Source: a virus
Taxonomy: Duplodnaviria > Heunggongvirae > Uroviricota > Caudoviricetes
Direction: 5' to 3' (one strand)
IMG/VR virus record: IMGVR_UViG_3300037882_002341
Location: 958 to 64,957 of that record
Length of the DNA: 64,000 nt
The notes below the pieces were generated by a model that saw only the letters and a program-made list of their open reading frames with translations, ran no database searches and was not told the origin of the DNA. This document shows positions 1 to 17,866 of the stretch, in pieces (position 1 is the stretch's first letter; every line of letters begins with the position of its first letter). A program made the translations under genes and the position numbers.

Positions 1-237
1 CTTGCACTCTGCCGAATGATCGAAGCCCTCCAACCTCAGAGGGTTCCCGCGCGCCTTTCCACACCAGCAGTATCCAGAGCGGAACCCGCGGAGCGCCGCC
101 TCCAGTTCCGCCACCCGCGCGGCCTGGGCGTCGACGTGGGCGAGGAGGGAACGCGCATCCAGCCGCGTCTCGTTGACGTCGTAAAAGCCGAATGCGATCC
201 GCTCCCGCACCGCCGCCAACTCCTCGGGGGTCATCAT
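1..237 (-). CDS. hypothetical phage protein, runs off the window edge (MMTPEELAAVRERIAFG...AARVAELEAALRG...CWC)
   Basis: Open frame from ATG at 237 to base 1; start overlaps the stop of 234..512; GC-rich compared with neighbours. Confidence 0.7.
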   Translation of the reverse strand, partial: MMTPEELAAVRERIAFGFYDVNETRLDARSLLAHVDAQAARVAELEAALRGFRSGYCWCGKARGNPLRLEGFDHSAECK

Positions 238-512
238 TTTCTATCTTTCTTTTGTAATATAGCAAGTAGCTTATTACACTCTTCTTGCGCAGCTCGTTCA
301 AAAAGTCCTGCGTCAATTGTAGTGGGCAATGATCCCATATTCCAATCTACAAGATTTGAGGTATCAATGATACCTCTTTTAATATTTTGCGGGTCGCGAT
401 CGTACTCTTGTGCTTCTACAATTATGTTTATTAACTCTCCTTCAAGTTGTCTTATAAGCCACTTACGTGCAATCTTTTGTGCATCTTTCTCTTCCTTTGT
501 TCTATGATTCAT
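234..512 (-). CDS. hypothetical protein
   Basis: 92 aa ORF tightly packed between neighbours; ends in TGA. Confidence 0.7.
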   Translation of the reverse strand: MNHRTKEEKDAQKIARKWLIRQLEGELINIIVEAQEYDRDPQNIKRGIIDTSNLVDWNMGSLPTTIDAGLFERAAQEECNKLLAILQKKDRK

Positions 513-1006
513 TACTTACTATCCTTTCTGGCCTTATATTTATTCAATAACTTATTGATATATTTCCTAATATCTCTTACTGTAGTTCTCTGATGTTCAT
601 TGTTGGGTCCAGAATAGAAGAGCTTATAAGCTTCTTCGGGCGTAATACCAAAAAAGTGGGCGAAGTCTGCAGATGTTCGAGAATAATAATCTGACATAGG
701 AAGGTGTAGTGTTTCACTTTCTATATCGTAAGTTAACCCTCTCTCCTGAAACCATTTGTCTAATCCTGCCCAACCGGCTACACAACAGACAGTATTACAA
801 GGCGGTATATCTTCTTCTTTTATGTCTATCATACAACTTCTAAAGAAGTTAAGCATTTGAGAACTGTTCTCAAATCTCTTACCCCATTGAGTAATCAAAA
901 AAGCACCAGAGGGCTTTTTTGCCACTTCTCTCATAACTCTCTTAAGTTGCAAGAGTTTCTCATAAGTTGTACTTATATCCATAATAGGTCTATTGGTCTC
1001 TATCAT
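512..1006 (-). CDS. phage protein, CxTxCCVxGWAG family, copy 1
   Basis: LKRV...GAF..W...CNTVCCVAGWAG.D.WFQERG...LFYSGPNN shared with 4661..5143 and 6439..6870. Confidence 0.8.
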   Translation of the reverse strand: MIETNRPIMDISTTYEKLLQLKRVMREVAKKPSGAFLITQWGKRFENSSQMLNFFRSCMIDIKEEDIPPCNTVCCVAGWAGLDKWFQERGLTYDIESETLHLPMSDYYSRTSADFAHFFGITPEEAYKLFYSGPNNEHQRTTVRDIRKYINKLLNKYKARKDSK

Positions 1007-1718: not shown

Positions 1719-2151
1719 TATGCTTTTCTTCCTCGGTAAACCTTTTTAGGGGAGGTTTGACCCAAGATGCAAAAGGTTTTGCACACCACTCTTTGACAAG
1801 AGTTACATCAAGTCCTCTGTTAGAGGCGAGAGAATAGAAACGTTCAGGCCATTGTTCAGGCTCGAACTGATCGTGAATACGTTGGGCACTATCTGCGATA
1901 CCATATTGAATAGTATCAATTCCTTTATTCTCCAGGAATACTCTAAGTCTTTGACTTCTTTCTGAAGCACAGGGGTCTCTTAGACTTGCATATCTTACTG
2001 TTTCTACTTCTTCATCAGTTAAGAAGATACCTAAGGCACATTTCGTTCCTTCAGGTCCTCTATATAAACAAGTTAAACTACTATCTGTAGATTTCCTTCC
2101 CTGTTTTTGTAGATGCTCAACGATCTTGTCGAGTACTTCTTGATCTGTCAT
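1708..2151 (-). CDS. phage protein with CxYRG..GxKCALG and Q.IHD motifs
   Basis: 147 aa; motif pattern typical of a common uncharacterised phage family; ATGA overlap with the upstream gene. Confidence 0.75.
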   Translation of the reverse strand: MTDQEVLDKIVEHLQKQGRKSTDSSLTCLYRGPEGTKCALGIFLTDEEVETVRYASLRDPCASERSQRLRVFLENKGIDTIQYGIADSAQRIHDQFEPEQWPERFYSLASNRGLDVTLVKEWCAKPFASWVKPPLKRFTEEEKHNVN

Positions 2152-2525
2152 ATAATTACCTTTTCCAGGGGTTTACGATCATCGATAATTTCTTGAGCAA
2201 TAATTCTTATTTCATTACGACTAGTGGTCTTGATTTGGCTACTATAGGTAAGTCCATTTAGACAAGGGTCAACACTATGAAATGTGTAAGGTGCTAACTT
2301 TTTCCATAAAGCACCGAGAAGTGTAGGTAATTCTCTACATCTCTTATTCTCTACCTCCGGTAGAGCTATTACCATGGGTCAAGCTATTCCACTAACATAA
2401 TCATAGATTCCGCCATCTAATAGTATAGGTTTTCCTTCTTTAATCCATTGTGCGAGTCTTTCTAATCCTTCTGTTGGAATCTGTACTAGACCTAGCTTTA
2501 TGATTCCTTTAGTTTCTGGGAGCAT
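2148..2525 (-). CDS. putative selenoprotein, paralog A (125 aa; Sec at codon 49, TGA at 2379-2381)
   Basis: MLPETKGIIKLGLVQIPTEGLERLAQWIKEGKPILLDGGIYDYVSGIA-TGA-PMVIALPEVE...; both halves homologous to five other copies; SECIS-like hairpin downstream. Confidence 0.8.
2349..2365 (-). promoter_or_regulatory. putative bacterial SECIS (paralog A)
   Basis: mRNA sense CTCTACC-GGA-GGTAGAG, 7 bp stem, loop begins at +21 from UGA. Confidence 0.75.
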
Positions 2526-2534
2526 ATTTTTCTC

Positions 2535-2735
2535 TTATTCTTTAAGCAGTTTATCTAATAATATATTTAACTGTTTTACATCAATCTCTCCATGTATTTG
2601 TCTTATTACCTTACCAACAAGAATTCCCTTAACAGCAGTTTTCCCAGTACGATATTTTGCAACTATATCGGGATTTGTGGCAAGAATTTTAAGACAGATA
2701 TTACGAAGGCTAGTATCGTCTTCTTCGATTGTCAT
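2535..2735 (-). CDS. stand-alone GatB/YqeY C-terminal-like domain protein
   Basis: DD..L...C..IL..NPD.V.KYR.GK....G.LVG.V.....G..D...L..LL pattern matches the GatB C-terminal helical tail. Confidence 0.7.
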   Translation of the reverse strand: MTIEEDDTSLRNICLKILATNPDIVAKYRTGKTAVKGILVGKVIRQIHGEIDVKQLNILLDKLLKE

Positions 2736-2740
2736 AATAT

Positions 2741-2899
2741 CTACTTTTTATTGAACTTACCTAATCTACGAGACCACTTATCTTTCTTGTGGCCGGAATC
2801 TGCCTTAGAACGTTTCGGATTAGGTGGCATGATTCCTGTCTTAGTAATCGCTAAATCTCTCTTACGTCTCTCCTCTGAGGTCCAACGTATCTTTTTCAT
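2741..2899 (-). CDS. small highly basic protein (52 aa)
   Basis: MKKIRWTSEERRKRDL...; AAGGA RBS upstream; below the ORF-track cutoff. Confidence 0.55.
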   Translation of the reverse strand: MKKIRWTSEERRKRDLAITKTGIMPPNPKRSKADSGHKKDKWSRRLGKFNKK

Positions 2900-2926
2900 T
2901 CCGTTCCTTTATGGGATCAATAAAAT

Positions 2927-3337
2927 TCATAATTGGATATCTAATTTAGATTCATTAATGATTTCTTGTGCGATGTCTCGAATCTCACTAGGTGTAAAGT
3001 TTTTCAGTGAATGAGAATATCTTAATATTCTTTCTTGTTCTTCATATTCTTCTGCACTTGCAGTAATAGCATTACCCATAATGGGATCAATGTCGAACTC
3101 TATATATCCAAGTTTACGCCATCTATATCCTAGGTCTGAAAAGCAGTCGAAATCCTTTTGTTCTTCCTCCGGAAGAGCTACAACCATAGGTCAGTGAACA
3201 CCTTTCGATGTTACTGCTCCATTTAACAGTAACTCTTTACCGCCATCTATCCAGGCTATAAGTCTTAAAAGTCCATTAATTGGGATTTGCTTCAGAGCAG
3301 TTTTTACAACTAATCTTTGTTTATCTATAAGTTTCAT
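2927..3337 (-). CDS. putative selenoprotein, paralog B (136 aa; Sec at codon 49, TGA at 3191-3193)
   Basis: MKLIDKQRLVVKTALKQIPINGLLRLIAWIDGGKELLLNGAVTSKGVH-TGA-PMVVALPEEE... Confidence 0.8.
3162..3176 (-). promoter_or_regulatory. putative bacterial SECIS (paralog B)
   Basis: TCTTCC-GGA-GGAAGA, loop at +21. Confidence 0.75.
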
Positions 3338-3348
3338 TTAAAACTCTC

Positions 3349-3720
3349 TTATTTGTGCCCATTAAGAATATCTTGAGCAATTTTCTTAATATCACTAGGA
3401 GTAGTGTTAATAAGTTCTTGAGTGTAAGTGGTTAATGCTTTTCCACTTTTATCAAGAACATGTGGATTTACACTAAAGTGTCCAAGAAAACCATTTCTTT
3501 TCCAAACTTCTCCTAAAACCAGGATTCTTTGTGCAAAACGAGTAATTTCTGCCGACGGCAGAGCAGCGACCATGGGTCAGAATAAACTCTCACTTGCCCA
3601 AATTCTTCCATCTAATAGTAAAGGTTTACCATTATCAATCCACTCTATTAGTCTTAAAAGACCAGGAGCAGGAATCTGTTCTAAACCTTGTCTTATTGCC
3701 TTTACTGTTAGCTCTTTCAT
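3349..3720 (-). CDS. putative selenoprotein, paralog C (123 aa; Sec at codon 48, TGA at 3577-3579)
   Basis: MKELTVKAIRQGLEQIPAPGLLRLIEWIDNGKPLLLDGRIWASESLF-TGA-PMVAALPSAE... Confidence 0.8.
3548..3562 (-). promoter_or_regulatory. putative bacterial SECIS (paralog C)
   Basis: TCTGCC-GTC-GGCAGA, loop G at +21. Confidence 0.72.
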
Positions 3721-3725
3721 ATTAT

Positions 3726-4247
3726 CTATAACCTTATCTTTAATCCCATTGTTTCTTTCATATGCAAAAGTGCCTCTACATTACCTTTTGCATCATCAAC
3801 AGGATTATGTGTATGTTTCGTTTTACGAAGATGCTTAAAATTCTTAAAGGTATCTTTCACCAATCCCTTATAGAGAGATCCAAGATTTGTCGAACTAAAT
3901 CCAAATGGATTAGATCCTAAGAAATGATGGAAATACCAGTTTACAAATTGCCAATCAAAACCATTATTATCAGAGATAAACATTGGTTTATCATTACATG
4001 AAACCGTTGTTATCCAGTTACGGAAAGCACACATGACTTTTGTCGGATCTTCAAAAGCTAGTGTTTGCTCACGGCTGAAGTTACTTATAGCTAGTGCTTC
4101 AGGTATCCATAAATGAGAGATTGGTGCCATGAAGCCTAGAAAAGCATGGTCTAAAGATGGCTCCACAACAATTGCACCCAGTGCAATCATTGAGTAATCA
4201 CCTGGAATTGGGCCATCTGTCTCAACATCAACCATGATATATGTCAT
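3726..4247 (-). CDS. DEDDh 3'-5' exonuclease (RNase AS/Rv2179c-like)
   Basis: MVDVETDG (ExoI), NNGFDW (ExoII), HTHNPVDDA (ExoIII). Confidence 0.88.
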   Translation of the reverse strand: MTYIMVDVETDGPIPGDYSMIALGAIVVEPSLDHAFLGFMAPISHLWIPEALAISNFSREQTLAFEDPTKVMCAFRNWITTVSCNDKPMFISDNNGFDWQFVNWYFHHFLGSNPFGFSSTNLGSLYKGLVKDTFKNFKHLRKTKHTHNPVDDAKGNVEALLHMKETMGLKIRL

Positions 4248-4259
4248 ATTATTTTCTAG

Positions 4260-4658
4260 TTAAAGTTGTTCATAGGACAATCTACTTTGTTCAGATCTCT
4301 CGGTTAACAGCATATTTATAACTAATAGAATGTGTGCAGTTGTTGAAGTTCTAAGTGCCATAAAATACGAGTTCTTTTCAATCTCTGGATTATTTAAGAA
4401 CTCATTGTTCTTAAATCCCAGATACATTCTTGCACCCTCTATTAATCCATTGACTCTTGCAACAGATTCTCTTGTTTCCTCCGGAAACAAATGTACTTGA
4501 GGTCAGAAAAGTCCTTCTGCACTAGAAACATAACCACTTAGTAGGAGTTTTCCTCCTTCTTCTATATATTTCTTAAGTCTCTGAAGTGCTTCTATTGGGG
4601 TTCTACCTTCTTGTCCCAGACCCAAAGATAGAAGTCTTATCCTCATGCTCTCTTCCAT
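4260..4658 (-). CDS. putative selenoprotein, paralog D (132 aa; Sec at codon 52, TGA at 4503-4505)
   Basis: MEESMRIRLLSLGLGQEGRTPIEALQRLKKYIEEGGKLLLSGYVSSAEGLF-TGA-PQVHLFPEET...; no ATG just after the TGA. Confidence 0.78.
4472..4490 (-). promoter_or_regulatory. putative bacterial SECIS (paralog D)
   Basis: TTGTTTCC-GGA-GGAAACAA, 8 bp stem, loop at +21. Confidence 0.75.
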
Positions 4659-4660
4659 AA

Positions 4661-5143
4661 TTACCTTATTTTCTCTATCAGTTTATATTTCTTTATCAGG
4701 GTATTGAGATAAATCCTTATCTCTTTTAATGTGGTTCTTCCATACTTGTTATTAGGTCCGTTGTAGAAAAGTTTCCAGCTTTCTTCAATACTAATATCGA
4801 AGAATTGAGCGAGAGTACTAACACCTACATATCCCGTAGGTATCTGCATTCCCTCGGATCCCAAATCAAGGGTAAATCCTCTTTTCTGAAACCAAGGATC
4901 TAGTCCAGCCCAACCAGCTACGCAACAAACTGTTTGGCAAGGAGGAATATCTTTTTCTCTTATTTTCTCGTCCTTTACTCTTTTCAAGTAACTAAGCATA
5001 TCAAGCTTATTACTGAATACAGAACCCCATCGACTGATAAAGAATGCTCCTGAGGGTTTCTTTGCTACTTTATCTAGTACTCTTTTAAGTTGGAGGAGTT
5101 TTCCATATCCAGTACTTTTATCTACAAACATCTTGTTACTCAT
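4661..5143 (-). CDS. phage protein, CxTxCCVxGWAG family, copy 2
   Basis: CQTVCCVAGWAGLDPWFQKRG; clear paralog of 512..1006. Confidence 0.8.
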   Translation of the reverse strand: MSNKMFVDKSTGYGKLLQLKRVLDKVAKKPSGAFFISRWGSVFSNKLDMLSYLKRVKDEKIREKDIPPCQTVCCVAGWAGLDPWFQKRGFTLDLGSEGMQIPTGYVGVSTLAQFFDISIEESWKLFYNGPNNKYGRTTLKEIRIYLNTLIKKYKLIEKIR

Positions 5144-5147
5144 ATTA

Positions 5148-5426
5148 TTATTTTTCCACTATGATAGAGAAATCAGGAGATATTTCGACTTTACGTCCAT
5201 CTTTTAAGTAAAGCGTATGTGATCCATCTTCATGTTTACTTATCTCTTTAACACCTAACCAGTAATCTACTCTTTTACCGGTAGATCCCTTTTTATATAC
5301 ATCTACTTTCATGCTAGGTATAGAAGGTGATTTGGGGCCGCACTGAGTAGTAAAGATAGGAATAGATAAAAGAGATACAAGTAGGAAAGGTACTATTGAA
5401 GTATTACGATTAGAGATATTCTTCAT
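5148..5426 (-). CDS. putative lipoprotein/exported protein, copy 1
   Basis: Hydrophobic N-terminus then Cys (TQCGP); paralog of 8064..8336. Confidence 0.7.
   Translation of the reverse strand: MKNISNRNTSIVPFLLVSLLSIPIFTTQCGPKSPSIPSMKVDVYKKGSTGKRVDYWLGVKEISKHEDGSHTLYLKDGRKVEISPDFSIIVEK
5221..5272. repeat. 52-bp exact direct repeat (second copy 8137..8188)
   Basis: gatccatcttcatgtttacttatctctttaacacctaaccagtaatctactc at both positions. Confidence 0.9.
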
Positions 5427-5479
5427 AAAGAGATCTCTTCTTATAGTGAGGATATTAAGAAGTTATTTAATAGTTACCA

Positions 5480-5881
5480 CTAAAGATGACTTCTAAGAAC
5501 ATACCGCTCACCAATATTATCTGAGAGCCATTTGGCAGTTCTTTTCATATCTTTAGTAGTAAATAACTCATTAGGACCAAACATCATTTCATCATAAAGA
5601 CAATAGCCATCAGGTGTATAAACACCCAGATCCATAATGGCTTTTCCTTTACAATGACATGTTCTACCTAGTTTGTCTCTTTTCCATGGTGTAACCCAAG
5701 TTAGATCAATAGACTTAACTATTGTCCAACGTTTCTTGTAATAATTATAAATCCTGTCTCCTGGTGATAAAGCAGCTACACGAGCTACTAATATCCACCA
5801 AGTACGCCAGGTATATTGAATACCATCATGAAAAGGAGCTTTCCATTTCTTCTCGTTTACTCCTCTATTGAACTTTTTCAT
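5480..5881 (-). CDS. hypothetical protein
   Basis: 133 aa ORF in the gene string. Confidence 0.7.
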   Translation of the reverse strand: MKKFNRGVNEKKWKAPFHDGIQYTWRTWWILVARVAALSPGDRIYNYYKKRWTIVKSIDLTWVTPWKRDKLGRTCHCKGKAIMDLGVYTPDGYCLYDEMMFGPNELFTTKDMKRTAKWLSDNIGERYVLRSHL

Positions 5882-5883
5882 GG

Positions 5884-6279
5884 TTATTCCTTCTTAGGTT
5901 CTTCCTCAATTAGTTCTTCTACAGCAGTGCGGACACCAGAAATACCATAAAGAGCTAAAGCAAATACATACGATTCTTCGCGTATGTCACAATTTGGATT
6001 TGCCGAGAAAGATTCAACACCATGAGCAATCCACTTACCTTCTAAAAAAGGCACTATCTTTATGCCCGATCTCTTTGATGCATCAATAACTTCTTGACGT
6101 GCTTCTCCCGGAAGCATTACAACCATAGGTCAAGGAGCACCGTTCAAATCGACTATATAGCCTGTTGTACTAATAGGCTCTCCTTTATCAATAGCTTTAA
6201 GGAGACGTCGATATGCACGTATATCTTTTACCTGGCCAAGTCCAGCTTTCAATATGTTTAAGTGTCTACGGTTTATCAT
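5884..6279 (-). CDS. putative selenoprotein, paralog E (131 aa; Sec at codon 50, TGA at 6130-6132)
   Basis: MINRRHLNILKAGLGQVKDIRAYRRLLKAIDKGEPISTTGYIVDLNGAP-TGA-PMVVMLPGEA... Confidence 0.78.
6100..6116 (-). promoter_or_regulatory. putative bacterial SECIS (paralog E)
   Basis: TGCTTC-CGGGA-GAAGCA, G at +21 retained. Confidence 0.7.
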
Positions 6280-6283
6280 TGGT

Positions 6284-6427
6284 CTATCTTTCTTTACTCT
6301 TATTAAGCTTAGTCTGAATAGCCTTTAGCTTTTTGCGTATCTCCTCTTTAGACAAGTGAACATGAATACTATTGTGTCTAATAGTGCTATTCTTACTAGG
6401 TTTATTAAGAGGTTTCTTCTTAGACAT
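6284..6427 (-). CDS. small basic protein (47 aa)
   Basis: MSKKKPLNKP...; GAGG RBS; fills the gap between genes. Confidence 0.5.
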   Translation of the reverse strand: MSKKKPLNKPSKNSTIRHNSIHVHLSKEEIRKKLKAIQTKLNKSKER

Positions 6428-6438
6428 ACCAGTAACCT

Positions 6439-6870
6439 CTATTGCTTATACTTCTCTAGTAATTTATTAATATATATTCTTACTTCTTCTAGTGTAGTAC
6501 GAGTAAAGTTATTATTAGGTCCAGTGTAGAAAAGCTTTTCACTCTCATCAGCAGTAATATTAAAAAACAATTGAACATCTTCTGGAAGTGCTACTTTACT
6601 AAAGATAAGTAAAGCATTTATTCCTAGATCAATAACAAGTCCTCTTTCTTGGAACCAGGGATCTGACCCTGCCCAACCTCCAACACAACAGATTGTTTTA
6701 CATGCTGGAACATCTTCTATTAAATTTCTGGATCTTAAGAAACCAAGTACTTCTTCATCAGTGCTGAACTTTTTACCCCATACTCCAAAATAAAATGCTC
6801 CCTGTGCTTTTGTTGATATCTCGTCCATCACTCTCTTGAGATTGAGAAGTCTCTCATATGTGGTATTCAT
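6439..6870 (-). CDS. phage protein, CxTxCCVxGWAG family, copy 3
   Basis: CKTICCVGGWAGSDPWFQERG...LFYTGPNN. Confidence 0.8.
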   Translation of the reverse strand: MNTTYERLLNLKRVMDEISTKAQGAFYFGVWGKKFSTDEEVLGFLRSRNLIEDVPACKTICCVGGWAGSDPWFQERGLVIDLGINALLIFSKVALPEDVQLFFNITADESEKLFYTGPNNNFTRTTLEEVRIYINKLLEKYKQ

Positions 6871-6884
6871 AGTTATTTACCTCT

Positions 6885-7220
6885 TTACTTATCCATAATT
6901 GAGTAAATAAGCCATCCCATTAGGACTGCCATAAGTGGATGGCCTAAATTTATTACAAAGCTCTGTGACACTACCTTTCGCCATAACTTATTCTCATAAT
7001 CCGTTTCTATTCTTTGCGGATGGAACAGGTTAACAGTGGTAGATATACCAAGAGCCCACCACATTGATAGAGTGGGTGCTCCTAATGGAACAATAAACCA
7101 TGTCCAGAGTTTACACAAAGCCCAGCCTCTAAGGAAGGTTCCTACTATGATACCTATTAATACTATTAAGCATCCAAGACTAAGTTCGGTACTATCTGGA
7201 TCATCTTTAAACTCGGACAT
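6885..7220 (-). CDS. membrane protein
   Basis: About three hydrophobic segments; LWTWFIVPLGAP motif. Confidence 0.75.
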   Translation of the reverse strand: MSEFKDDPDSTELSLGCLIVLIGIIVGTFLRGWALCKLWTWFIVPLGAPTLSMWWALGISTTVNLFHPQRIETDYENKLWRKVVSQSFVINLGHPLMAVLMGWLIYSIMDK

Positions 7221-7382
7221 GATTTACTTTCTTTTAATAAGTAATACTTAAAAGTCACTATTACCAGGCCAGGTCTTGTTAAAGATAGTCGCTAAGACGG
7301 TTACAATTGCTACAGTTACAGGAACTCCGGTAATGACTATTAACCATTCATTACAATTCATAGATTACTTTCTTAGTTCTGA

Positions 7383-7649
7383 TTAACTGATCTTTTCACA
7401 CTCTTTAATTAGTGAAGAAGCATCAGCTCTATGATCCTCAGCCCATTCTTGAATAACATACACAGAATAAGGCTCTAGATCAGCTACTGTAGTATTCTCG
7501 AATGGATAGGGACAAGAACATCCACTATCTGTGGCGTAGAAAAGCTTGTTATCTGACTTTCTTCTGTATACACGTAGTGTACAGAATTCATAGAATAGAT
7601 CAGGCTCATCAAGATCTCCTACGACATCGTATTCTGAGTCTAGATCCAT
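7383..7649 (-). CDS. acidic phage protein with DSGCSC motif
   Basis: YATDSGCSCPYPFE motif; AGGA RBS. Confidence 0.75.
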   Translation of the reverse strand: MDLDSEYDVVGDLDEPDLFYEFCTLRVYRRKSDNKLFYATDSGCSCPYPFENTTVADLEPYSVYVIQEWAEDHRADASSLIKECEKIS

Positions 7650-7865
7650 AGTATTTTCCTAATGTTAGACAATATTATTATGTTTTACTCGTCTTCTGAT
7701 ACTACGGGTGAGGACTAATTAGCGATTTTCTGGATAGCCTCGCTAATATCAATCATAGCCCATCCAATAACTCCAATCCAAAGTGTAATTGATATGAGAC
7801 AGACAATCACTATTACGTTTCCGAATGTTACCTCTATCTTAGTTTCGTTAGCCAAGGTATTTCCT

Positions 7866-8051
7866 TTACTTGTGTTTTTCTGGGTGCACTAGTGGAACAA
7901 GTAATTGTCCTCGATCATCGATACCATGCATGGTTTCAAGACGTTCAAGTCGATCATTGCTATTACAACTTGTTCCAATTATTCCCGCTAAGAGCAAAAG
8001 TCCCATGAACAGAGTCCATATTCATGCAGGTTCTTTGTTTTCGGTGGACAC
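7866..8051 (-). CDS. small lipoprotein-like ORF interrupted by in-frame TGA (8022-8024)
   Basis: AAGGAG RBS + GTG, MSTENKEPA-TGA-IWTLFMGLLLLAGIIGTSC...; may instead start at the internal ATG. Confidence 0.45.
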
Positions 8052-8063
8052 TTTATTTCTCCT

Positions 8064-8336
8064 TTACTTTTCTACTATGATGGAGAAGTCTGAAGGGATT
8101 TCAATTTGGCGTCCATCTCTTAAATAAAGAGTATAAGATCCATCTTCATGTTTACTTATCTCTTTAACACCTAACCAGTAATCTACTCGATCACCGGATT
8201 TATCCTTTTTATATACTTGAACATACATAGAAGGTTGTCTAACGGTAGTTGGTCCACAACTAACAAGTACTCCAATAACAAAAGCAAGTGCTATTAGAAA
8301 GAAGACAAGAAGAAGGTTAAGTCTGAAATTACTCAT
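8064..8336 (-). CDS. putative lipoprotein, copy 2
   Basis: Signal-like N-terminus with LVSC lipobox; paralog of 5148..5426. Confidence 0.72.
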   Translation of the reverse strand: MSNFRLNLLLVFFLIALAFVIGVLVSCGPTTVRQPSMYVQVYKKDKSGDRVDYWLGVKEISKHEDGSYTLYLRDGRQIEIPSDFSIIVEK

Positions 8337-8439
8337 TAGGATGAAATCCTTACAAAAGAGTAATGAGTACATTAGGAGGTTAAAGGAAAGGGATATACAT
8401 ATTAAGGAAGAGGAAGTTAGTACTAAAGGTAGTAACGTA

Positions 8440-8709
8440 TTATCTTACTTCCTCTACTCTTACACATTCCCACCAGTCATATGGATAATCCATTGTTGTT
8501 GTTGGATTTATCCATGACACACGCATTGTTCCATCATCCCATTTTACATAATGGAGATCTTTGCATGTAAGGAGCTGTGGACCAGTGTTTCGCTCTGCCA
8601 CATATAGATCACCTGGTTCAATAGAACCTGGTTTCATTCTAAGATTAATTCCTTCTAGATTAAGGACACCTCCATCCAGAAGGACTTTTAATGACTTGTA
8701 CTCTCTCAT
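8440..8709 (-). CDS. hypothetical protein
   Basis: 89 aa; GGAG RBS. Confidence 0.7.
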   Translation of the reverse strand: MREYKSLKVLLDGGVLNLEGINLRMKPGSIEPGDLYVAERNTGPQLLTCKDLHYVKWDDGTMRVSWINPTTTMDYPYDWWECVRVEEVR

Positions 8710-8847
8710 CTAATCTCCCTTTTGCGGCGTATTCTTTACATATACACAACACTCTTCACATCCATTACACTCTAAACATATGTACTTGGAATTCCTAGTC
8801 CCACATACGTTACAAAGATACTCAGATTCCATTCTTAGAAGAAGCAT
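8710..8847 (-). CDS. small Cys-rich zinc-finger-like protein
   Basis: CNVC...CLECNGCEECC, 45 aa. Confidence 0.5.
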   Translation of the reverse strand: MLLLRMESEYLCNVCGTRNSKYICLECNGCEECCVYVKNTPQKGD

Positions 8848-9295
8848 AGTTCTACCTTCGCAATAGTAGTAAGAGCGTTAGATGTCTCTCTCTTGTAATA
8901 GCGCGCTAGAAATAGAAAAGTTGCTGTGTAGGTTCAATCCCACTTCAGCCTCAGTACTATTTATTTCCAGGCTCAATCCAGCCTATGTCCTTCATGAGCT
9001 CGAGCTACGCTCGAGCCTATCTCCAGGCTAAGTCTAGCTTATCCCTCTTGTAATCCCCGAGCCTAGGTTTTAAGAGCAAAGATGGGCATGGTATCCTCTC
9101 GGACAGGTTGCCTCTTGGATATCCACAGTTTGAGAGCTCTTGGTAGCTCTCTTCTCTGGATCTTTGCTCTTTTATATAAAACAGGGGTCGCAAAAGCTTT
9201 TGTTCTTTTGAGCCTAAGTCTTAAGAGTTCTTCTTGAAGAGTTCTTAAAAATTAGCCTCGAAAATGCCCTCTGGGAGGGGGTAAAGTACAACTTC

Positions 9296-9511
9296 TTACC
9301 AGTTCTCTCTTAAGAACTCCATGCAAGCTTCTATTCTCCAGTCCTGGAAGAAGGGATCGAGATCACTTGCCCGGATACGTTCTGCTAGATCTGGTCTTAC
9401 GGAACATAGTTCATTAAATAAGAACTGTCCCTTGCGCCATGACCCTGGACGGGTTATGAAAGATAAAGTTACCCTACCCGCAAATTGCTCATAGTTCTCT
9501 TTATCTGGCAT
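9296..9511 (-). CDS. phage protein (WRxGQ..FN...RPDLA..IR....DPF motif)
   Basis: 71 aa; motif typical of a widespread small phage protein. Confidence 0.75.
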   Translation of the reverse strand: MPDKENYEQFAGRVTLSFITRPGSWRKGQFLFNELCSVRPDLAERIRASDLDPFFQDWRIEACMEFLRENW

Positions 9512-9899
9512 CTTTATTTCCTACGTTAAGAATAGCCTGTGCTATTTCCTTAATGTCTTCTACGCTGACTAATGAAAGACTTGATCCATAACTAAGATAT
9601 CTCTCTATGCTCGGATCCCAAAATTCCGGGTCTACCTGGAAAAGAGGGACACCATTAAGCATCCAAGCTCCCGAAAGGGATAGATCTGAATCAAGACAGT
9701 CAATCCTGGATCGCTCTGCCTCCGGCAGAGCGCAGACCATAGGTCAAAAGAGCTTCTCTCCGTTTGCTTTTGTACAAGTAATTTGACCAGTAAGTAATAC
9801 TGGCTTACCAGCATTGATCCATTCTATTAGTCTCAAAAGACCATCCGTAGGGATCTGATCCAGACCATTATGGATAGTCTTTCTTATGATATCCAGCAT
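9501..9899 (-). CDS. putative selenoprotein, paralog F (132 aa; Sec at codon 52, TGA at 9744-9746)
   Basis: MLDIIRKTIHNGLDQIPTDGLLRLIEWINAGKPVLLTGQITCTKANGEKLF-TGA-PMVCALPEAE...; AAGGA RBS before the upstream ATG. Confidence 0.8.
9712..9732 (-). promoter_or_regulatory. putative bacterial SECIS (paralog F)
   Basis: CGCTCTGCC-GGA-GGCAGAGCG, 9 bp stem after an 11-nt spacer from UGA, loop at +21. Confidence 0.78.
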
Positions 9900-9910
9900 C
9901 TTTATTCCTT

Positions 9911-10051
9911 TCAAGTGGACCTAAATCCAGGACATCTTCTTTCTTTATTAGGACTAGTATGTCCGTGCCATAGGCACATCTTGCATACTTCTTCGCCGCA
10001 AATAACACAACATGCTATTATCACCCTCTCATTGCATAGAGTGCAAACCAT
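9911..10051 (-). CDS. small Cys-rich zinc-finger-like protein
   Basis: MVCTLC...CCVICGEEVCKMC..H.H, 46 aa. Confidence 0.5.
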   Translation of the reverse strand: MVCTLCNERVIIACCVICGEEVCKMCLWHGHTSPNKERRCPGFRST

Positions 10052-10347
10052 CCAAATAGCTTGCCCAAGCTCTTTACGATGCTTCAGTAGGGGATACTAT
10101 CAACTCTCATGGTAATCTCACTGCGCCCCTTCGGGGCGCCCTTTTAAAGCGGTAAGCCAGAGGGTACTTGTACTTTCCATGTCGCAGTTCCCAGTCTGAC
10201 ATGGCACTCTGGCTCACCTCGGTGGCTGGTCACCTTTATTTACTACCAAAACAACCATTCATCAAACTATTTCAATTTGGTATTCTAAAGGTTTAGTTCT
10301 ACCGGTTCATGGGACTATCTCCTTTGGTTAAAGGACATCAGGTTAAT

Positions 10348-10480
10348 TGGTGGCGGGGAGTCCAGATCTTTCCATCAAGTTGCCATCTTGATACATTATT
10401 GCGGTAGCGATTCCGCGTTTTGTGTATCTGAACCCTCATCGACGGTCTTACTACCTTTAGTGACCTCCGAGTTCCCCGCC
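10348..10480 (-). ncRNA. unclassified structured RNA ending in ACCA
   Basis: GGCGGGGA...TCCCCGCC closing stem followed by ACCA-3'; several internal hairpins; no T-arm. Confidence 0.55.
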
Positions 10481-10523
10481 TATTCTCTTGTATTGCGCGC
10501 CTTCGGCGCGCTTACTTTATCTT

Positions 10524-10601
10524 TGGTAGGGGCACAGGGATTTGAACCCTGAACCTGTCGGTTATATGCCGACTGCTCTAGCCAGGTTGAGCTATACCCC
10601 G
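10524..10601 (-). tRNA. atypical tRNA, anticodon TAT (Ile-like), A at position 33
   Basis: Full cloverleaf, GTCGG-CATATAA-CCGAC arm, TTCAAAT T-loop, encoded CCA, 1:72 mismatch. Confidence 0.8.
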
Positions 10602-10629
10602 AGAGTCCTATTGCGCCCCTCCGGGGCGC

Positions 10630-10989
10630 TTACTGACCGTAGTAATCGCCGTAATCTTTTTCGAGTTCTTTCTCGATTTCTGCGAGTTCCTTGTTGTACT
10701 TCTTCCGGCACTCCATGCAGACCTCGTAGTATACCGAGGGCTCATCCCGGGGCTTCAGCCCTGTGATATCTCTTGCCGGTACTTCCTTGTTGCACCAGTC
10801 ACAGTGTCCCTTGGTGGGCCAGCCGATCTCGGTCAGCTGTTCGTCTGTGAGTTCTCTTGCAGCATAGTTGCAGCGTTGGCACCCATAGACCCCATCTTCA
10901 CAGTTCCCCTTGTGAAGAGGCTTGTCATTGAGCATGGGGCCTGTGTACTCACCCACGTCAACTGGGGGTCCAAGGCTGAAGTCGTGCAT
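10630..10989 (-). CDS. Cys-rich zinc-binding hypothetical protein
   Basis: CQRC, CDWC, CMEC pairs; GGAG RBS. Confidence 0.75.
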   Translation of the reverse strand: MHDFSLGPPVDVGEYTGPMLNDKPLHKGNCEDGVYGCQRCNYAARELTDEQLTEIGWPTKGHCDWCNKEVPARDITGLKPRDEPSVYYEVCMECRKKYNKELAEIEKELEKDYGDYYGQ

Positions 10990-11039
10990 GGTGTCTCCAA
11001 GAGGTCTATTGTCGAGGGAGATCTATACCCCTATGCGGA

Positions 11040-11600
11040 GTCCAGTCGCCTGGGTAACTGCTTGTCGTAACTGACTTGGGAGCTTATAGATCTCCAAGAG
11101 GTTTGGTGCGGGTTGTTTTTATCCAGGTAACCCGCAAAGCCTGCTCGGGGTCTTTAAGAGCTCGGTGGGGGTCTCCCCGTGTCATCCCCAGGTCAACGCT
11201 CTATTTCACAGGTTAACATATTGACATATGTTAGTTGCCCGCCGGTGTCGCCCGATGACCTGAAATAGGCAGTCTCCAAATCCCCAGTGGTTACGAAACT
11301 GCCAAAGATCCACCGTGAGGTCGCTCTTCAGCTATCCCGGGACGCCGAGCGTACCATAATTCCCAGGGTTATAGCTCATAAATGGCTGTTGGTTCCCCCG
11401 GTGGTCGCCATACACCAGGATCAATACCAGGACGAATACTGTTCACAGGCTGACCTGATTCCAGTATTGATCGCTTTCTCAGCGGGTGGTACCACACCCC
11501 CAAGACTGAACAGATGTCCTCTGTTGGGTCTGTTAACTCCGATGAGGACTCTCTACTGCTCTAAGCCTGGTGGCACCCTTTCGGGCACCACCAGGTACTT
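11040..11600 (-). ncRNA. candidate large structured ncRNA (~550 nt); strand inferred from context
   Basis: No convincing ORF; many helices, e.g. 11107-14/11129-36, 11201-08/11261-68, 11419-27/11464-72, 11566-11595. Confidence 0.5.
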
Positions 11601-11662
11601 TAGTAGTAGTAGGTAATTTAAACTTAGATGTTTGTTTATTACCTATTTATTACTGTCTTGTG

Positions 11663-12712
11663 CTAGAACCCGACCTCCGCCGGGTTGACGACGTTGTCCT
11701 CCGTGTTGGAGGGAGCGAAGTTGCCCGAGGGGGCTTCCATGGGTCCCGGACCCGACGGTCCGAAGCGCTGGTTCCCGCCCGAGTTCTGGCTGTTCCGAGC
11801 CTGGGCCCGGCCCGCGAAGGGGATTCCCTTGATCTCGGAGATCTGCTTCCAGATCGGCGAGGCCTTGATCTCCCGGAGGAGGTGATCGCTCACCACCTTG
11901 CTCCGCTGTCCACGGCTGAAGACCTGCCCGCGGAAGCGACGCGTCTGCTGACGCCGGTTGTTCATGCGGTCCATGACGGGCACTCCCGTCAGGTTGCCGG
12001 CCTCGTCCGTTCCCCAGGTGAAGTAGAGTCCCAGCCCCGGGAGACGCGACGAGGACCACTGGTCCGAGTGCGGGTTGACGATGAGGTTCCCGTCCTTGCC
12101 GATCGGGCAGAAGAGGAACGGCGTGTAGCCGATCTTCGAAGCCGGGAACTCGATGATGTGGGTGATGCGCTCGCGGCCCTTGATGGCCTTGAGCCAGCCC
12201 TTGTTCTTGAACTCCTCCAGCAGTTCGGGGTTCTCGTTGATGCTCTTGATGGCGTCGGCCATCAGGTTGTCGAGCTCGATCGTCGAGGGCACGTCCGAGG
12301 CGAAGTACGTGTCCGAACCGGAGCCCTGCTCTCCGAAGCGGAGGCTCACGGCGCTGCCCGAGGCCTTCATGTTCCCGCGGGGGTTGAGGCCGCAGGCTCG
12401 GCTGACCAGGACCGGAGGCAGGCTGTACTTCCCGTCCTCCTCGAGCTTGATCTCGCGGGAGACCCAGAGTTCGGAGGCGGCCCTGTGCTTGTTCTTCTTC
12501 TCGGGACGTCCGGGACCGAAGACGAACTGGATGTTCGCTCCGTTCACGTTGTTCTGCTGGTCCTTCTCGATCAGCAGGTTGAGTCCGGTGACGTGAGGCG
12601 GGATGGGCTCGGCCCTCACGACCTGGAGGTTCGGCAGGACCTCCTGGAGCCACTTGTCGGCGAGCGAAGCGGCGACGGCCACGGCGACGGTGGCCCTGTT
12701 CTTTCTGGACAT
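11663..12712 (-). CDS. hypothetical protein (349 aa, start MSRKNR)
   Basis: Strong G/C third-position bias; GGAGG RBS; the ORF-track extension runs into tRNA-Leu. Confidence 0.8.
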   Translation of the reverse strand: MSRKNRATVAVAVAASLADKWLQEVLPNLQVVRAEPIPPHVTGLNLLIEKDQQNNVNGANIQFVFGPGRPEKKNKHRAASELWVSREIKLEEDGKYSLPPVLVSRACGLNPRGNMKASGSAVSLRFGEQGSGSDTYFASDVPSTIELDNLMADAIKSINENPELLEEFKNKGWLKAIKGRERITHIIEFPASKIGYTPFLFCPIGKDGNLIVNPHSDQWSSSRLPGLGLYFTWGTDEAGNLTGVPVMDRMNNRRQQTRRFRGQVFSRGQRSKVVSDHLLREIKASPIWKQISEIKGIPFAGRAQARNSQNSGGNQRFGPSGPGPMEAPSGNFAPSNTEDNVVNPAEVGF

Positions 12713-12814
12713 TTCTGTCCTCCTGTTTGTGTACACACGACAGCCCTGTGTACTGGGCGTGATCTCCTCGAAAGAGAAGATGCAGAGTAAGAGAAAGGAA
12801 GAGAAGAGTTCAGC

Positions 12815-12897
12815 TGGGCGAGGAGGGAGTCGAACCCTCACGCTCTTGCGAGCAGGAGATTTTAAATCTCCAGTGTCTGCCATTCCACCACACGCCC
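12815..12897 (-). tRNA. tRNA-Leu(TAA)
   Basis: Cloverleaf with long variable arm, GGAGA-TTTAAAA-TCTCC, GTTCGACTCC. Confidence 0.92.
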
Positions 12898-12913
12898 AGG
12901 CTTGAGACGGGTA

Positions 12914-13495
12914 CTACTGAGCGTAGCTGGGCATCGACGGAGCGATACCCTCGAACGGGGAGGTACGGGTCTCCCTGGTCCGTTCCTGTCTGGGCTCGGG
13001 CTGAGTCTGGGGCTCGGAGTAGTCCATCTCCTGCCCGTTGTACGTGTCCTGCTCGTCGATGTAGCTGAACGGTGTGGACCTCCGGGCGAGTTCCCGGGTG
13101 ACCTCGCTGTCCGACATCCGGCTGACGATCAGGGCCCAGTTGCCCTTCTGGGGGCCTTCGATGGTCTCGATCAGGGCGATGCGCCTGGCCTGGGGGTCCA
13201 CCTTCGAGAGCTGGCGTCCCATGGCCCATTCGGCCTTGCGGTTCTCGGCCTTGTCCCACCCGTACTTCGTGGACTGGCCGTACTGCGAGCCTGCGATGGA
13301 GCTGGCTGCTGACTTCAGGATGTCGCCGAGCATCATGAACGGTGTGGCCAGGGCGTTGCCCAGTTCACCGGTGGCGACTCCTGCGCAGTGAGTGCTGTGT
13401 ACGAGCCTGTTGCCCACTGCGGGCATGGGGACGAGACGTCCGTTGCGCACGACGAGCACGTGGTCCTTGGGGATACGACTTTCCTGGACTCGCAT
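12914..13495 (-). CDS. hypothetical protein (start MRVQES)
   Basis: AGGAGG RBS; GC3-biased frame. Confidence 0.75.
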   Translation of the reverse strand: MRVQESRIPKDHVLVVRNGRLVPMPAVGNRLVHSTHCAGVATGELGNALATPFMMLGDILKSAASSIAGSQYGQSTKYGWDKAENRKAEWAMGRQLSKVDPQARRIALIETIEGPQKGNWALIVSRMSDSEVTRELARRSTPFSYIDEQDTYNGQEMDYSEPQTQPEPRQERTRETRTSPFEGIAPSMPSYAQ

Positions 13496-13560
13496 TGAGC
13501 CCTCCTGAGAAAGAGAAAAAGAAACCACAAGAGAGGAAGAGAGAAGAGAAAGAGGTATTC

Positions 13561-13815
13561 TTATGCTACGTTCCTCCTTCCTCGCCTGAGGCTAGTTGTG
13601 GTCTGTTGTTCCAGGACAAAGCCCGTAGGGCGCATGTCCGGGAATGCCTGATTCAGGACACTCTGCCTGAACTCTGGACTTGAGATCACAACAATTGTTG
13701 CCTTGAGCACTGCATCGGCTACGCTTTCGCGCTTGGCCTTAGCAGAGGCTATGGCAACTATTGTTGCAATACCCGCTCCCAGGAGGAAACACACGAGACC
13801 GATGATGATTGTCAT
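13561..13815 (-). CDS. small membrane-anchored protein (start MTIIIG)
   Basis: N-terminal hydrophobic helix; ATGA overlap with the upstream gene. Confidence 0.65.
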   Translation of the reverse strand: MTIIIGLVCFLLGAGIATIVAIASAKAKRESVADAVLKATIVVISSPEFRQSVLNQAFPDMRPTGFVLEQQTTTSLRRGRRNVA

Positions 13816-13991
13816 GGTTTGAAGATCCCGATGTAGGTGAGATCGTTGTTGTTCTTGTTGAACATGAAGAGCTTGAAGCCACTCTTCTTGTCCTCGATGC
13901 GAACGTCTTCTACGACCTTCTCGGGGGACTCCCTGAGCATGGGCCACCATGTGTAGTCGTCGAAGATTACGTAGAACAGGTACTTATCCAT
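13812..13991 (-). CDS. hypothetical protein (59 aa, MDKYLFYVIF...)
   Basis: Below the ORF-track cutoff; fills the gap with an ATGA overlap. Confidence 0.65.
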   Translation of the reverse strand: MDKYLFYVIFDDYTWWPMLRESPEKVVEDVRIEDKKSGFKLFMFNKNNNDLTYIGIFKP

Positions 13992-14000
13992 GTTTAGCCC

Positions 14001-14333
14001 CTACATGTCGAGCTGATTTCTCAGCCTCTTCTTTTCGAAGTAGAGGATCATGGTTAGCATAAGTCCAAAGACTAACCCCGCAGTGAATCCCGTCAGGGTG
14101 AATCCGAGGCCATATGTCAACCCCCAAGATAGACCAATGTCAATGATCCATGACACTGGGCCCCATGTGATCACTCTCTTCAACCAAGTAGGAGTGAACA
14201 CGTACGCGAAGCCTACTGAGAACAACATGACAATTCCCAGTAATGCCCCGTTGATGATCAGGTGGGCTCCCGACAGGGAGGCCAGGAGTATGACTACTCC
14301 GAAGATTGCGCACAGAATCCAGAACGACTTCAT
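14001..14333 (-). CDS. membrane protein
   Basis: About four hydrophobic segments. Confidence 0.75.
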   Translation of the reverse strand: MKSFWILCAIFGVVILLASLSGAHLIINGALLGIVMLFSVGFAYVFTPTWLKRVITWGPVSWIIDIGLSWGLTYGLGFTLTGFTAGLVFGLMLTMILYFEKKRLRNQLDM

Positions 14334-14335
14334 GT

Positions 14336-14545
14336 CTACCTTCCCTTATATGGCTCGAGGACCCACTTCTTGTGCATGATCCCGAGGTACCTGAAGTCTA
14401 CGTCCACCTGCTCGTAGATCTCGAGGGGATAGGTCGAGTTCCTGTCCACCCTGTTCTGGAAGGCCAGGATAGCATCCTCCACGTTTTCCGCCTCACAGTG
14501 CCAGAAAGTCCCACCCGTGTAGTGGATAGCGAAGTACTTCTTCAT
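14336..14545 (-). CDS. hypothetical protein (start MKKYF)
   Basis: AGGAG RBS after a pyrimidine tract. Confidence 0.7.
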   Translation of the reverse strand: MKKYFAIHYTGGTFWHCEAENVEDAILAFQNRVDRNSTYPLEIYEQVDVDFRYLGIMHKKWVLEPYKGR

Positions 14546-14609
14546 GTTTATCTCCTGTGAGAAGAAGAGAGAAATAGACCAAGAGGTAGAGAAAGGGAAG
14601 AAAAGACTA

Positions 14610-14873
14610 CTACTTGAGCTGCCAGCCCAGTTCCATCCTCCCACAGTAGACGAGATTGTTGTTGTCACCCATGCTCTTCTTCCAGTAGAGGAAGACCATG
14701 TGTCCCTCTGTCAGGTTCTTGTGTTTCAGTTCCTTGGCGATCTTCTTCATTGCGCTTTCCCGGTCCGTGTCCATTACAACGATGTACTGACCTTCGTGTA
14801 GTGCGTAGAAGAAGAACTCTTCCGTGTCCTGTTCTCCCCCTCCCAGTTCCTCGAAAACCTTTGCTATGCTCAT
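14610..14873 (-). CDS. hypothetical protein
   Basis: 87 aa; AAGGAG RBS. Confidence 0.7.
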   Translation of the reverse strand: MSIAKVFEELGGGEQDTEEFFFYALHEGQYIVVMDTDRESAMKKIAKELKHKNLTEGHMVFLYWKKSMGDNNNLVYCGRMELGWQLK

Positions 14874-15100
14874 GTACCTATCTCCTTTCCCCTGCAGGGG
14901 ACACGTGATAAGACCACAACGTAAGAAGGAGAGAGGAAAGCCTACTGTTTACAGAGTGTATTTCTATGGTTTAGGTGGGTTTAAGTATGTGTTTAGCGGG
15001 GATCTATTTGAACGAGTAGGTTTATCGAGGATTAGCTTTGAGCTCGGAAATTCCGGTTGGATGGGATAATCCGGGTCAATTGAGGTTACGTACCTCATTT

Positions 15101-15133
15101 AAAACAAAAGGAGTAGGTGATGTCCCTACTCCT
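15101..15133 (-). terminator. intrinsic terminator
   Basis: AGGAGTAGG-loop-CCTACTCCT + TTTGTTTT downstream of 15160..16887. Confidence 0.75.
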
Positions 15134-15159
15134 AATGTTGTGTACGTCGTGAGGCTCAG

Positions 15160-16887: not shown

Positions 16888-16962
16888 TTGAGTGGTACCT
16901 CCTTTGGGTGAGCAACTCTCGGTGCTTTCTTTAGTGAGGTGCACCTAAGCCTCATTGAAAAT

Positions 16963-17003
16963 AAAGAAACAAAAGGGCAGAGCCTGCAAAGCAGGATGCC
17001 CTT
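16963..17003 (-). terminator. intrinsic terminator (bulged hairpin + TTTGTTTCTTT)
   Basis: AAGGGCA..TGCCCTT followed by a U-rich tail. Confidence 0.7.
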
Positions 17004-17006
17004 GTC

Positions 17007-17279: not shown

Positions 17280-17300
17280 GTTGACCTCCCTTGAATGAAC

Positions 17301-17756: not shown

Positions 17757-17808
17757 ACTGCTCCTTGGCCATATTGGTAACTGGGTTGGCCAGACCCACT
17801 TAAGTAGT

Positions 17809-17843
17809 AAAGAAACAAAGGGCCCACCCGTTAGGGCGAGCCC
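17809..17843 (-). terminator. intrinsic terminator (bulged hairpin + TTTGTTTCTTT)
   Basis: Same tail as the 16963 and 18417 elements. Confidence 0.65.
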
Positions 17844-17866
17844 AGTGTTCATGTCCTAGTCAGAGA

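Follow-up and report, generated by a model that had tools for sequence, protein, structure and literature searches.

How can a phage gene keep a stop codon within its most conserved motif, and do so in many copies? The question is raised by a 64,000-nucleotide stretch of DNA (the window), bases 958-64957 of the complete 192,957-bp virus record IMGVR_UViG_3300037882_002341, which carries direct terminal repeats and belongs to a tailed phage (terminase, portal, major head protein and tail sheath were identified). When TGA is read as a residue, six minus-strand open reading frames (ORFs) of 123-137 codons appear within the window, each with a small hairpin behind its in-frame TGA. A first-pass annotation had proposed that these hairpins are selenocysteine insertion sequence (SECIS) elements of the bacterial type. 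We find that the hairpins are a real, selected RNA structure and, judging from sequence comparison, that they probably serve as compact SECIS elements of the bacterial type in the nine copies of a new phage-borne selenoprotein family. The bacterial-type interpretation of the first-pass annotation draws its support from a conserved reading frame, a fit to the bacterial SECIS (bSECIS) model in loop, stem and spacing, covariation, a synonymous recoding test and ordinary stops that are free of hairpins.

Six paralogous genes share a hairpin in one register

Identity among the six paralogous genes is 25-48%, or 25-41% when measured against gene A, and they are sited among small minus-strand genes at the left genome end, where the local GC content is 35-41%. 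With U for the residue at the TGA, their core motif is an invariant U-P-x-V-x-x-x-P, read as U-P-M/Q-V-x-x-L/F-P. The T of the six in-frame TGAs lies at window positions 2381, 3193, 3579, 4505, 6132 and 9746 on the minus strand, and this T is counted as position 1 throughout. The genes and their hairpins, in window coordinates, are as follows.

2148..2525, minus strand: family gene A, 125 codons; candidate selenocysteine (Sec) TGA at 2379-2381; ordinary stop TGA at 2148-2150, which overlaps the ATG of the next gene
2349..2365, minus strand: hairpin A, 7 bp, loop GGA, positions 17-33 from the T of TGA; CTCTACC-GGA-GGTAGAG
2927..3337, minus strand: family gene B, 136 codons; in-frame TGA at 3191-3193; ordinary stop TGA at 2927-2929
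3162..3176, minus strand: hairpin B, 6 bp, loop GGA, positions 18-32; TCTTCC-GGA-GGAAGA
3349..3720, minus strand: family gene C, 123 codons; in-frame TGA at 3577-3579
3548..3562, minus strand: hairpin C, 6 bp, loop GUC, positions 18-32; TCTGCC-GTC-GGCAGA
4260..4658, minus strand: family gene D, 132 codons; in-frame TGA at 4503-4505; the sole copy with Gln (CAA), not Met, two codons past the TGA
4471..4491, minus strand: hairpin D, 8 Watson-Crick pairs and one G-U, loop GGA, positions 15-35; TTGTTTCC-GGA-GGAAACAA
5884..6279, minus strand: family gene E, 131 codons; in-frame TGA at 6130-6132
6100..6116, minus strand: hairpin E, 6 bp, loop CGGGA, positions 17-33; TGCTTC-CGGGA-GAAGCA
9501..9914, minus strand: family gene F, 137 codons from a TTG start, with an ATG five codons further in; in-frame TGA at 9744-9746
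9712..9732, minus strand: hairpin F, 9 bp, loop GGA, positions 15-35, stem beginning 11 nt past the UGA; CGCTCTGCC-GGA-GGCAGAGCG

All six hairpins had been located by the first-pass annotation, and on the minus strand of the window each lies where it was placed and has the sequence that was quoted. They share one register, in which positions 23-27, 22-28 and 21-29 pair and the stem continues outward from there, with the loop at positions 24-26. As had been claimed, the stems differ and stay paired: pair 21-29 is A-T in A, T-A in B, D and E, and G-C in C and F, and the residues encoded across the hairpin change from copy to copy (LPEV, LPEE, LPSA, FPEE, LPGE and LPEA, from A to F). The loop Pro codon is CCG in all six, the first loop G falls at position 24, that is 21 nt past the A of UGA, and the stem of copy F does begin 11 nt past the UGA. 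The description of the element as compact and without bulges also stands, with stems of 5-9 bp and loops of 3-5 nt in the nine phage copies found in all; stems and loops of the other family members are of like size.

The family comprises 21 members in eight contigs

A profile search reading through stops found nine copies in the complete phage, with one internal TGA apiece. The three extra copies, which lie outside the window, are these.

Genome positions 139316-139693, 167852-168199 and 188194-188565, minus strand: copies G, H and I, with U-P-M-A/V plus hairpin

The hairpin of copy H is in register with one G-U pair and that of copy I is in register with one A-C mismatch, while in copy G the 3' arm is shifted by one base and the loop is AGUUA. 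An 18-base DNA pattern taken from the UGA site matched 35 metagenome loci, and five distinct contigs among them hold ten family members.

L026: four copies in tandem arrays
L038: two copies (L046 is the same DNA)
L045: one copy (L052 is the same)
L030: one copy
L049: two copies

A marginal match, L031/L053, was excluded from the protein set. Two further single-copy members came from IMG/VR records by way of a looser DNA pattern, bringing the family to 21 members in eight contigs of 36-62% GC; twelve of these members lie in the seven contigs other than the phage. Five members (G, H, I, L038a and L049b) were found without any TGA or hairpin pattern.

The in-frame TGA lies inside a conserved reading frame

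An in-frame TGA occupies the same alignment column in 21/21 members, and the frame is kept in all of them with no other stops or frameshifts. The TGA is present at the site in each of the five members found pattern-free. Conserved motifs occur on both sides of it across contigs, and the two halves are always in the same frame, exactly one codon apart. The codon that follows is CCN in every member, with CC invariant and all four third bases occurring; variation limited to the third base is what a translated Pro codon, and not a spacer, would show. An ATG stands two codons past the TGA in 20/21 members, and in copy D this ATG is replaced by CAA, leaving no restart codon.

A reassigned genetic code was ruled out, as TGA acts as an ordinary stop in this phage: it ends 16 of 161 crude ORFs, the long structural genes are open under translation table 11, and 12 of the family genes themselves end on an ordinary TGA. 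ARAGORN detected 31 tRNA genes in the phage, including tRNA-Trp(CCA) and tRNA-Cys(GCA) and none with the anticodon UCA, and two extra tRNAs found by Rfam alone have the anticodons GTC and GTA by manual reading of their sequences. With no UCA anticodon among the tRNAs found, a phage suppressor tRNA was also ruled out. No tRNA-Sec scored above cut-off in the phage, and selA, selB and selD were not found there. In the absence of a phage tRNA-Sec, UGA suppressor tRNA, selA, selB or selD, decoding of the UGA would depend on the host. The search for other selenoprotein candidates among 178 in-frame TGAs of the phage gave none that was convincing.

Among the predicted tRNAs, one at window 24380-24473 (plus strand) is a 94-nt tRNA-Ile(tat) with a long extra arm that gives it a class-II-like appearance; this ARAGORN prediction is below the Rfam gathering score, and its anticodon is not UCA.

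The fixed register sets the hairpins apart from chance

A hairpin is present behind the in-frame TGA in 21/21 members. The first-pass annotation had named ordinary TGA stops as a control, and only one of 30 such stops (crude ORFs of at least 60 aa) carries an in-register run of at least 5 pairs. At the terminal TGA stops of the family genes the hairpin is absent in all 12, the longest in-register run being 3. Across the whole phage, on both strands, 22 of 6201 TGA trinucleotides are followed by at least 5 Watson-Crick pairs in the exact register, and six of these are family sites. A hairpin at no set place within +10 to +40 is nothing unusual, as one stands behind 51 of the 178 in-frame TGAs that have an open frame on both sides. 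Because hairpins downstream of TGA are this common, the argument rests on the fixed register together with the covariation.

RNAalifold, which the first-pass annotation had suggested as a check, predicted the helix 17-22/28-33 unaided. A covariance model recovered exactly the nine family sites in the phage, all with E values not above 4e-6, and had no other match below E 0.19; since it also gives 12-35 bits to pattern matches outside the family, what it detects is mainly the coding motif, and it does not count as an independent test. Rfam, searched at E values up to 5, matched neither a SECIS nor any other family to the region.

RNAalifold also draws a 3-bp mini-helix (A3-U11, C4-G10 and C5-G9) at positions 3-11 from each family TGA (for example window 2371-2379), which includes the A of UGA. 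The mini-helix is near-invariant and covariation is therefore uninformative on it.

Covariation and synonymous recoding indicate selection on the RNA

In the nine phage copies, 77.8% of cells are paired, compared to 66.3 +/- 3.5 in shuffled alignments, and the covariation score is 0.438 compared to 0.222; none of 500 shuffles reaches either value. The 20 aligned sequences gave a similar picture, with 78.9% of cells paired (67.3 +/- 2.3 in shuffles), 28 cells changed on both sides (11.8 in shuffles) and a covariation score of 0.403 (0.188 in shuffles), and again 0/500 shuffles reach any of these. When the register was slid, the same 20 sequences gave at most 57.2% paired cells and a covariation score of at most 0.176. 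That covariation is seen within one phage means that drift in GC content between genomes is not its cause.

The covarying pairs are 17-33, 18-32, 19-31 and 21-29. Pair 18-32 is UA in 6 sequences, GC in 6, AU in 1 and CG in 1, and pair 21-29 is UA in 10, GC in 4, CG in 2 and AU in 1. Positions 18 and 21 fall on synonymous third bases, whereas each partner is the second base of a codon further on (32, four codons later, and 29, three codons later). A change that preserves such a pair therefore alters the encoded residue (V, E, A or G). Codon choice at the loop is also unusual: CCG, the rarest Pro codon of the phage (232/2409, 9.6%), supplies the first G of the loop in 8/9 phage copies, and the Pro next to U is never encoded by CCG in these copies. 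The hairpins whose register is shifted, G (loop AGUUA) and L088 (loop GGUC), have nevertheless been kept.

We compared each native hairpin with 1000 synonymous recodings per copy for 19 copies. For 17 of the 19, the fraction of recodings that equalled or surpassed the native sequence in stability ranged from 0.001 to 0.19, and the Fisher combined p was 6e-11 for the 19 copies and 1e-5 for the nine phage copies. Furthermore, among stretches matching the strict pattern, all five pairs that the pattern leaves unforced are formed in 8/12 family members compared to 4/39 unrelated matches, three of those four being one recurrent element.

The hairpins resemble a minimal bacterial SECIS

In PMC13188914 (Fig. 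2 legend), the bSECIS model has an apical loop of 3-9 nt and an upper stem of 4-16 bp, a G in the first two loop positions, mostly as N1 G [G/U] N N2 with N1 and N2 paired, a UGA-to-loop distance of 16-37 nt and a minimum free energy (MFE) of -7.5 kcal/mol or lower. The phage family agrees with this model, as given there, in having the UGA in the coding region and in loop size, stem size, loop G and spacing (PMC13188914). The UGA-to-loop spacing is 19-20 nt in all members. The loop reads CGGAG in A, B, D, F, H and most metagenome copies, CGUCG in C, CGUUG in I, CGGGA in E and AGUUA in G, and in other contigs CGGUG (L038a), CGUGU (L049b), CGGCG (L113) and GGUC (L088), giving a general pattern C-G-[G/U]-N-G that matches N1 G [G/U] N N2. 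The energy limit is reached only in part: on a 29-nt fold, 5/9 phage and 9/10 metagenome copies have an MFE of -7.5 kcal/mol or lower; when the 48-54 nt after the UGA were folded, all nine phage copies reached -7.8 kcal/mol or lower, some through other pairings. Compared to the model, the family stands at the small end, with a triloop or pentaloop and neither bulge nor lower stem, and is found in phage rather than cellular genes.

The E. coli fdhF SECIS is alike in having UGA followed by C, a hairpin immediately downstream, and a G followed by G/U in the apical loop. The stem of copy F begins 11 nt past the UGA, the distance at which the minimal fdhF element starts, for which the literature searched gave no supporting passage, and L088, with its GGUC loop and a bulge in the 3' arm, is a further likeness. 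In contrast, the six hairpins of the window have no bulged U, are much shorter than the ~40-nt fdhF element and are not conserved in stem sequence. Because the bulged U is missing from these six, the phage hairpin is, as a predicted element, a minimal form of the general SECIS kind and not of the fdhF subtype.

Under this reading, each hairpin would bring host SelB, loaded with Sec-tRNA(Sec), to a UGA that lies 20 nt upstream, and the ribosome would insert selenocysteine there rather than stopping, to give a protein of ~125-140 residues; the host would be Sec-competent, and in the first-pass annotation the element was further supposed to be tuned to the host SelB. The general SelB/SECIS mechanism is described in the available part of PMC4513850.

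Weighing the alternatives

Several points weigh against a SECIS function. Decoding of the UGA would need the Sec machinery of the host. Hairpins are small, and on 29 nt the limit of -7.5 kcal/mol is not reached by B, E, H, I and L049b (-3.9 kcal/mol). In copies E (0.489) and L049b (0.673), about half of the recodings match or exceed the native hairpin in stability, and the peptide alone yields 4-6 of 9 in-register pairs in random synonymous recodings. For the 14 of 21 members that were fetched with DNA patterns fixing part of the hairpin, only the free positions are informative. Finally, Sec/Cys homolog pairs are the usual support for a new selenoprotein, and a Cys-form homolog was not found here in searches of limited sensitivity: word-indexed protein searches returned only C-terminal family fragments truncated at the UGA, a Cys peptide pattern matched six stretches in IMG/VR, none of them relatives, and a TGY DNA pattern gave 0 members in 35 IMG/VR loci, the matched TGA pattern likewise giving 0 in 17.

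The alternative that survives best, which we consider unlikely, is that an ordinary near-cognate tRNA (Trp, Cys or Arg) reads the UGA in programmed readthrough, which the hairpin would stimulate in a general way; a ~50-residue peptide would then be made alongside a selenium-free full-length protein. UGA-C is the leakiest stop context in E. coli, and the TGA is followed by C in all family members; the tRNA-Trp(CCA) and tRNA-Cys(GCA) genes of the phage and the lack of Cys-form homologs tying the site to Sec would also suit this explanation. However, a mere roadblock needs neither the N1 G [G/U] N N2 loop pattern nor the bSECIS spacing that the hairpins have, and TGG, TGY or CGA stands at the site in 0/21 members, including the five found without a TGA pattern. 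A residue miscoded at low efficiency would also be odd in the most conserved motif of the family. In phage Q-beta, leaky UGA readthrough via tRNA-Trp occurs at the end of the complete coat protein, without a SECIS-like hairpin, to give A1; the present genes are alike in that a phage protein would be extended through a partly read-through UGA, whereas their UGA falls within a single domain and in the motif that is most conserved.

A rather improbable alternative is that there are two separate genes, the first ending at the TGA and the second restarting at the ATG three bases on (TGA-CCN-ATG), whose peptides would assemble and for which the hairpin would serve coupling or mRNA stability. The near-constant ATG (20/21) speaks for it, as do the public gene calls, which represent the family as fragments of 74-86 residues (P0001-P0008) starting at the Met after U-P. 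Yet copy D has CAA in place of that ATG, the intervening CCN varies solely at its third base like a translated Pro codon, and the parts are always in the same frame exactly one codon apart. Moreover, a stable hairpin 13 nt past the start codon would be expected to hinder initiation, not help it, and in the structural model described below the protein is a single chain in which residues 56-58 run continuously between strand and helix.

It is very improbable that the conserved peptide A-L-P-E-E/A-E or shared ancestry yields the palindrome as a by-product, in which case the palindrome would have no RNA function and UGA decoding would be independent of it. Here the recoding results cut both ways, as random synonymous recodings retain the 4-6 of 9 pairs given above with a mean MFE of -2.4 to -7.9 kcal/mol and the native hairpins of E and L049b are no better than a typical recoding, whereas the combined p of 6e-11 over the 19 copies is not what a by-product predicts. 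A by-product would also leave unexplained the compensatory changes that link synonymous third bases 18 and 21 to second bases 32 and 29 and shift the amino acid, the use of the rare CCG at the loop, the intact hairpins of the register-shifted G and L088, and the excess of free pairs over unrelated stretches with the same pattern (8/12 and 4/39, three of the four being one recurrent element). That the genes are decaying pseudogenes or carry sequencing errors is scarcely credible: internal stop codons are the usual sign of decay, but here the 21 copies, drawn from eight contigs of 36-62% GC, share a single TGA in the same column, are otherwise free of stops and frameshifts, and are conserved in both halves.

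The protein may have a new fold

Searches of Pfam, PHROG and NCBIfam gave no match for the family protein, and a PDB sequence search gave none at E below 0.5. AlphaFold2, run on a 19-row alignment with U read as C, predicted one compact domain (mean pLDDT 92.6, pTM 0.86), in which position 57, the candidate Sec, is flanked by a short strand (54-56) and a short helix (58-61). Among 48,161 representative PDB chains there was no structural match at Z 5 or above, the best being Z 3.9, and on this model the fold is possibly new. No link to the thioredoxin fold or to other redox selenoprotein families emerged from these sequence and structure searches. The invariant residues are the Gln of G-L-x-Q, a Gly, U-P, a second Pro, the Pro of N/D-P and a Tyr, and the candidate Sec lies in the most conserved motif.

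If the UGA is indeed read as selenocysteine, the protein would be a new small enzyme or effector with the candidate Sec as its reactive centre, and the phage would have multiplied its gene into nine diverged copies. With low confidence, we guess that the protein could be a selenol-based redox enzyme or a reactive effector acting early in infection; the guess follows from the lone Sec in the most conserved motif between strand and helix, the multiplied and diverged copies, the tandem arrays in L026 and the neighbourhood of small uncharacterised genes. That nine diverged copies exist and no Cys form was seen suggests that selenium itself matters for function.

Phages and selenocysteine

Known virus-encoded selenoproteins include the glutathione peroxidases (GPx) of molluscum contagiosum virus and fowlpox virus. 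The phage family is like these in that a virus would encode a UGA-Sec protein and rely on host machinery for it. In contrast, their SECIS elements are of the eukaryotic type, in the 3' untranslated region or in the ORF, and the proteins are homologs of host GPx, whereas here the element would be of the bacterial type, in nine copies of a gene for which no cellular homolog was found. In the literature searched there was no report of a phage-encoded selenoprotein, the term viral selenoprotein occurring only in papers on eukaryotic viruses (for example PMC6769590). The words phage, virus and viral are likewise absent from the available text of a 2026 review of prokaryotic selenoproteomes (PMC13188914).

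We lean, with moderate confidence, towards a wider proposal, namely that phages can own a selenoproteome: nine Sec codons, an orphan and possibly new fold known only in its Sec form, and a minimal SECIS of 5-9 bp that borrows the host SelB, in a family that recurs, often in tandem, in unrelated phage contigs of 36-62% GC. E. coli has three selenoproteins, a number that nine phage Sec codons would exceed. On this proposal, selenium chemistry would be a recurrent phage tool in dealings with the host, bacterial-type Sec recoding would be used by a virus of bacteria, and a Sec-dependent phage would tie the success of its infection to the selenium supply and sel genes of its host. The 21 natural variants of a very small SECIS, with their built-in compensatory changes, would be useful to define the minimum that SelB needs. 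Gene callers systematically cut such phage genes at the UGA, and databases hold just the 74-86-residue fragments.

Distribution of the family and its surroundings

The neighbours of family members in the other contigs are nearly all ORFans, a single endonuclease VII being the sole Pfam match, and we infer that these contigs are phage DNA. The gene families next to the copies in the window are not shared with other family loci. A tblastn search of 50,697 phage records did not match the family, and none of three IMG/VR fragments related by their major capsid protein has a member. In the 19-row family alignment, no stretch was sufficiently conserved to seed a search for related loci. The closest terminase is that of Moorella phage MTATph1 (32% identity), in which the family is absent and which gives no clue to the host. 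Bacterial species genomes scanned with the 18-base pattern gave 21 matches, with no family members and no host lead, and the strict pattern had one match in IMG/VR, which we judged to be chance.

The 18-base pattern also matched a recurrent element in three contigs of Rhodoluna metagenome-assembled genomes and three metagenome contigs (L022, L040, L044, L056, L062 and L069). This element has no relation to the family; its extended stem encloses CTTCC-GGA-GGAAG, no sensible frame runs through it, and it is possibly a structured RNA.

Between family genes B and A, window 2535-2735 (minus strand) encodes a 66-residue protein that is a GatB/YqeY domain (E 2.8e-12). In cellular proteins this domain is tRNA-associated; a link of the small protein to Sec decoding would be pure speculation. 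A second paralog family, at window 512-1006, 4661-5143 and 6439-6870 (minus strand), comprises proteins of 143-164 residues with the motif C-C-V-A/G-G-W-A-G and no Pfam family. One copy stands directly upstream of gene D and another directly upstream of gene E; in other contigs, this second family was not seen beside members of the hairpin-bearing family. Window 5148-5426 and 8064-8372 (minus strand) encode two paralogous small proteins with signal-peptide/lipoprotein-like N-termini and near-identical C-terminal halves.

Two regions differ in composition from their surroundings. Window 1-300, ~1 kb from the left genome end, is far richer in GC than the next genes, and its ORF translations are rich in Arg, Gly and Pro. 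Window 10000-18000 is a high-GC island (53-60%, compared to 35-46% around it) with minus-strand tRNA-Ile(tat) and tRNA-Leu(taa) genes and ORFs of up to 594 codons without a Pfam family, and may be a foreign insertion.

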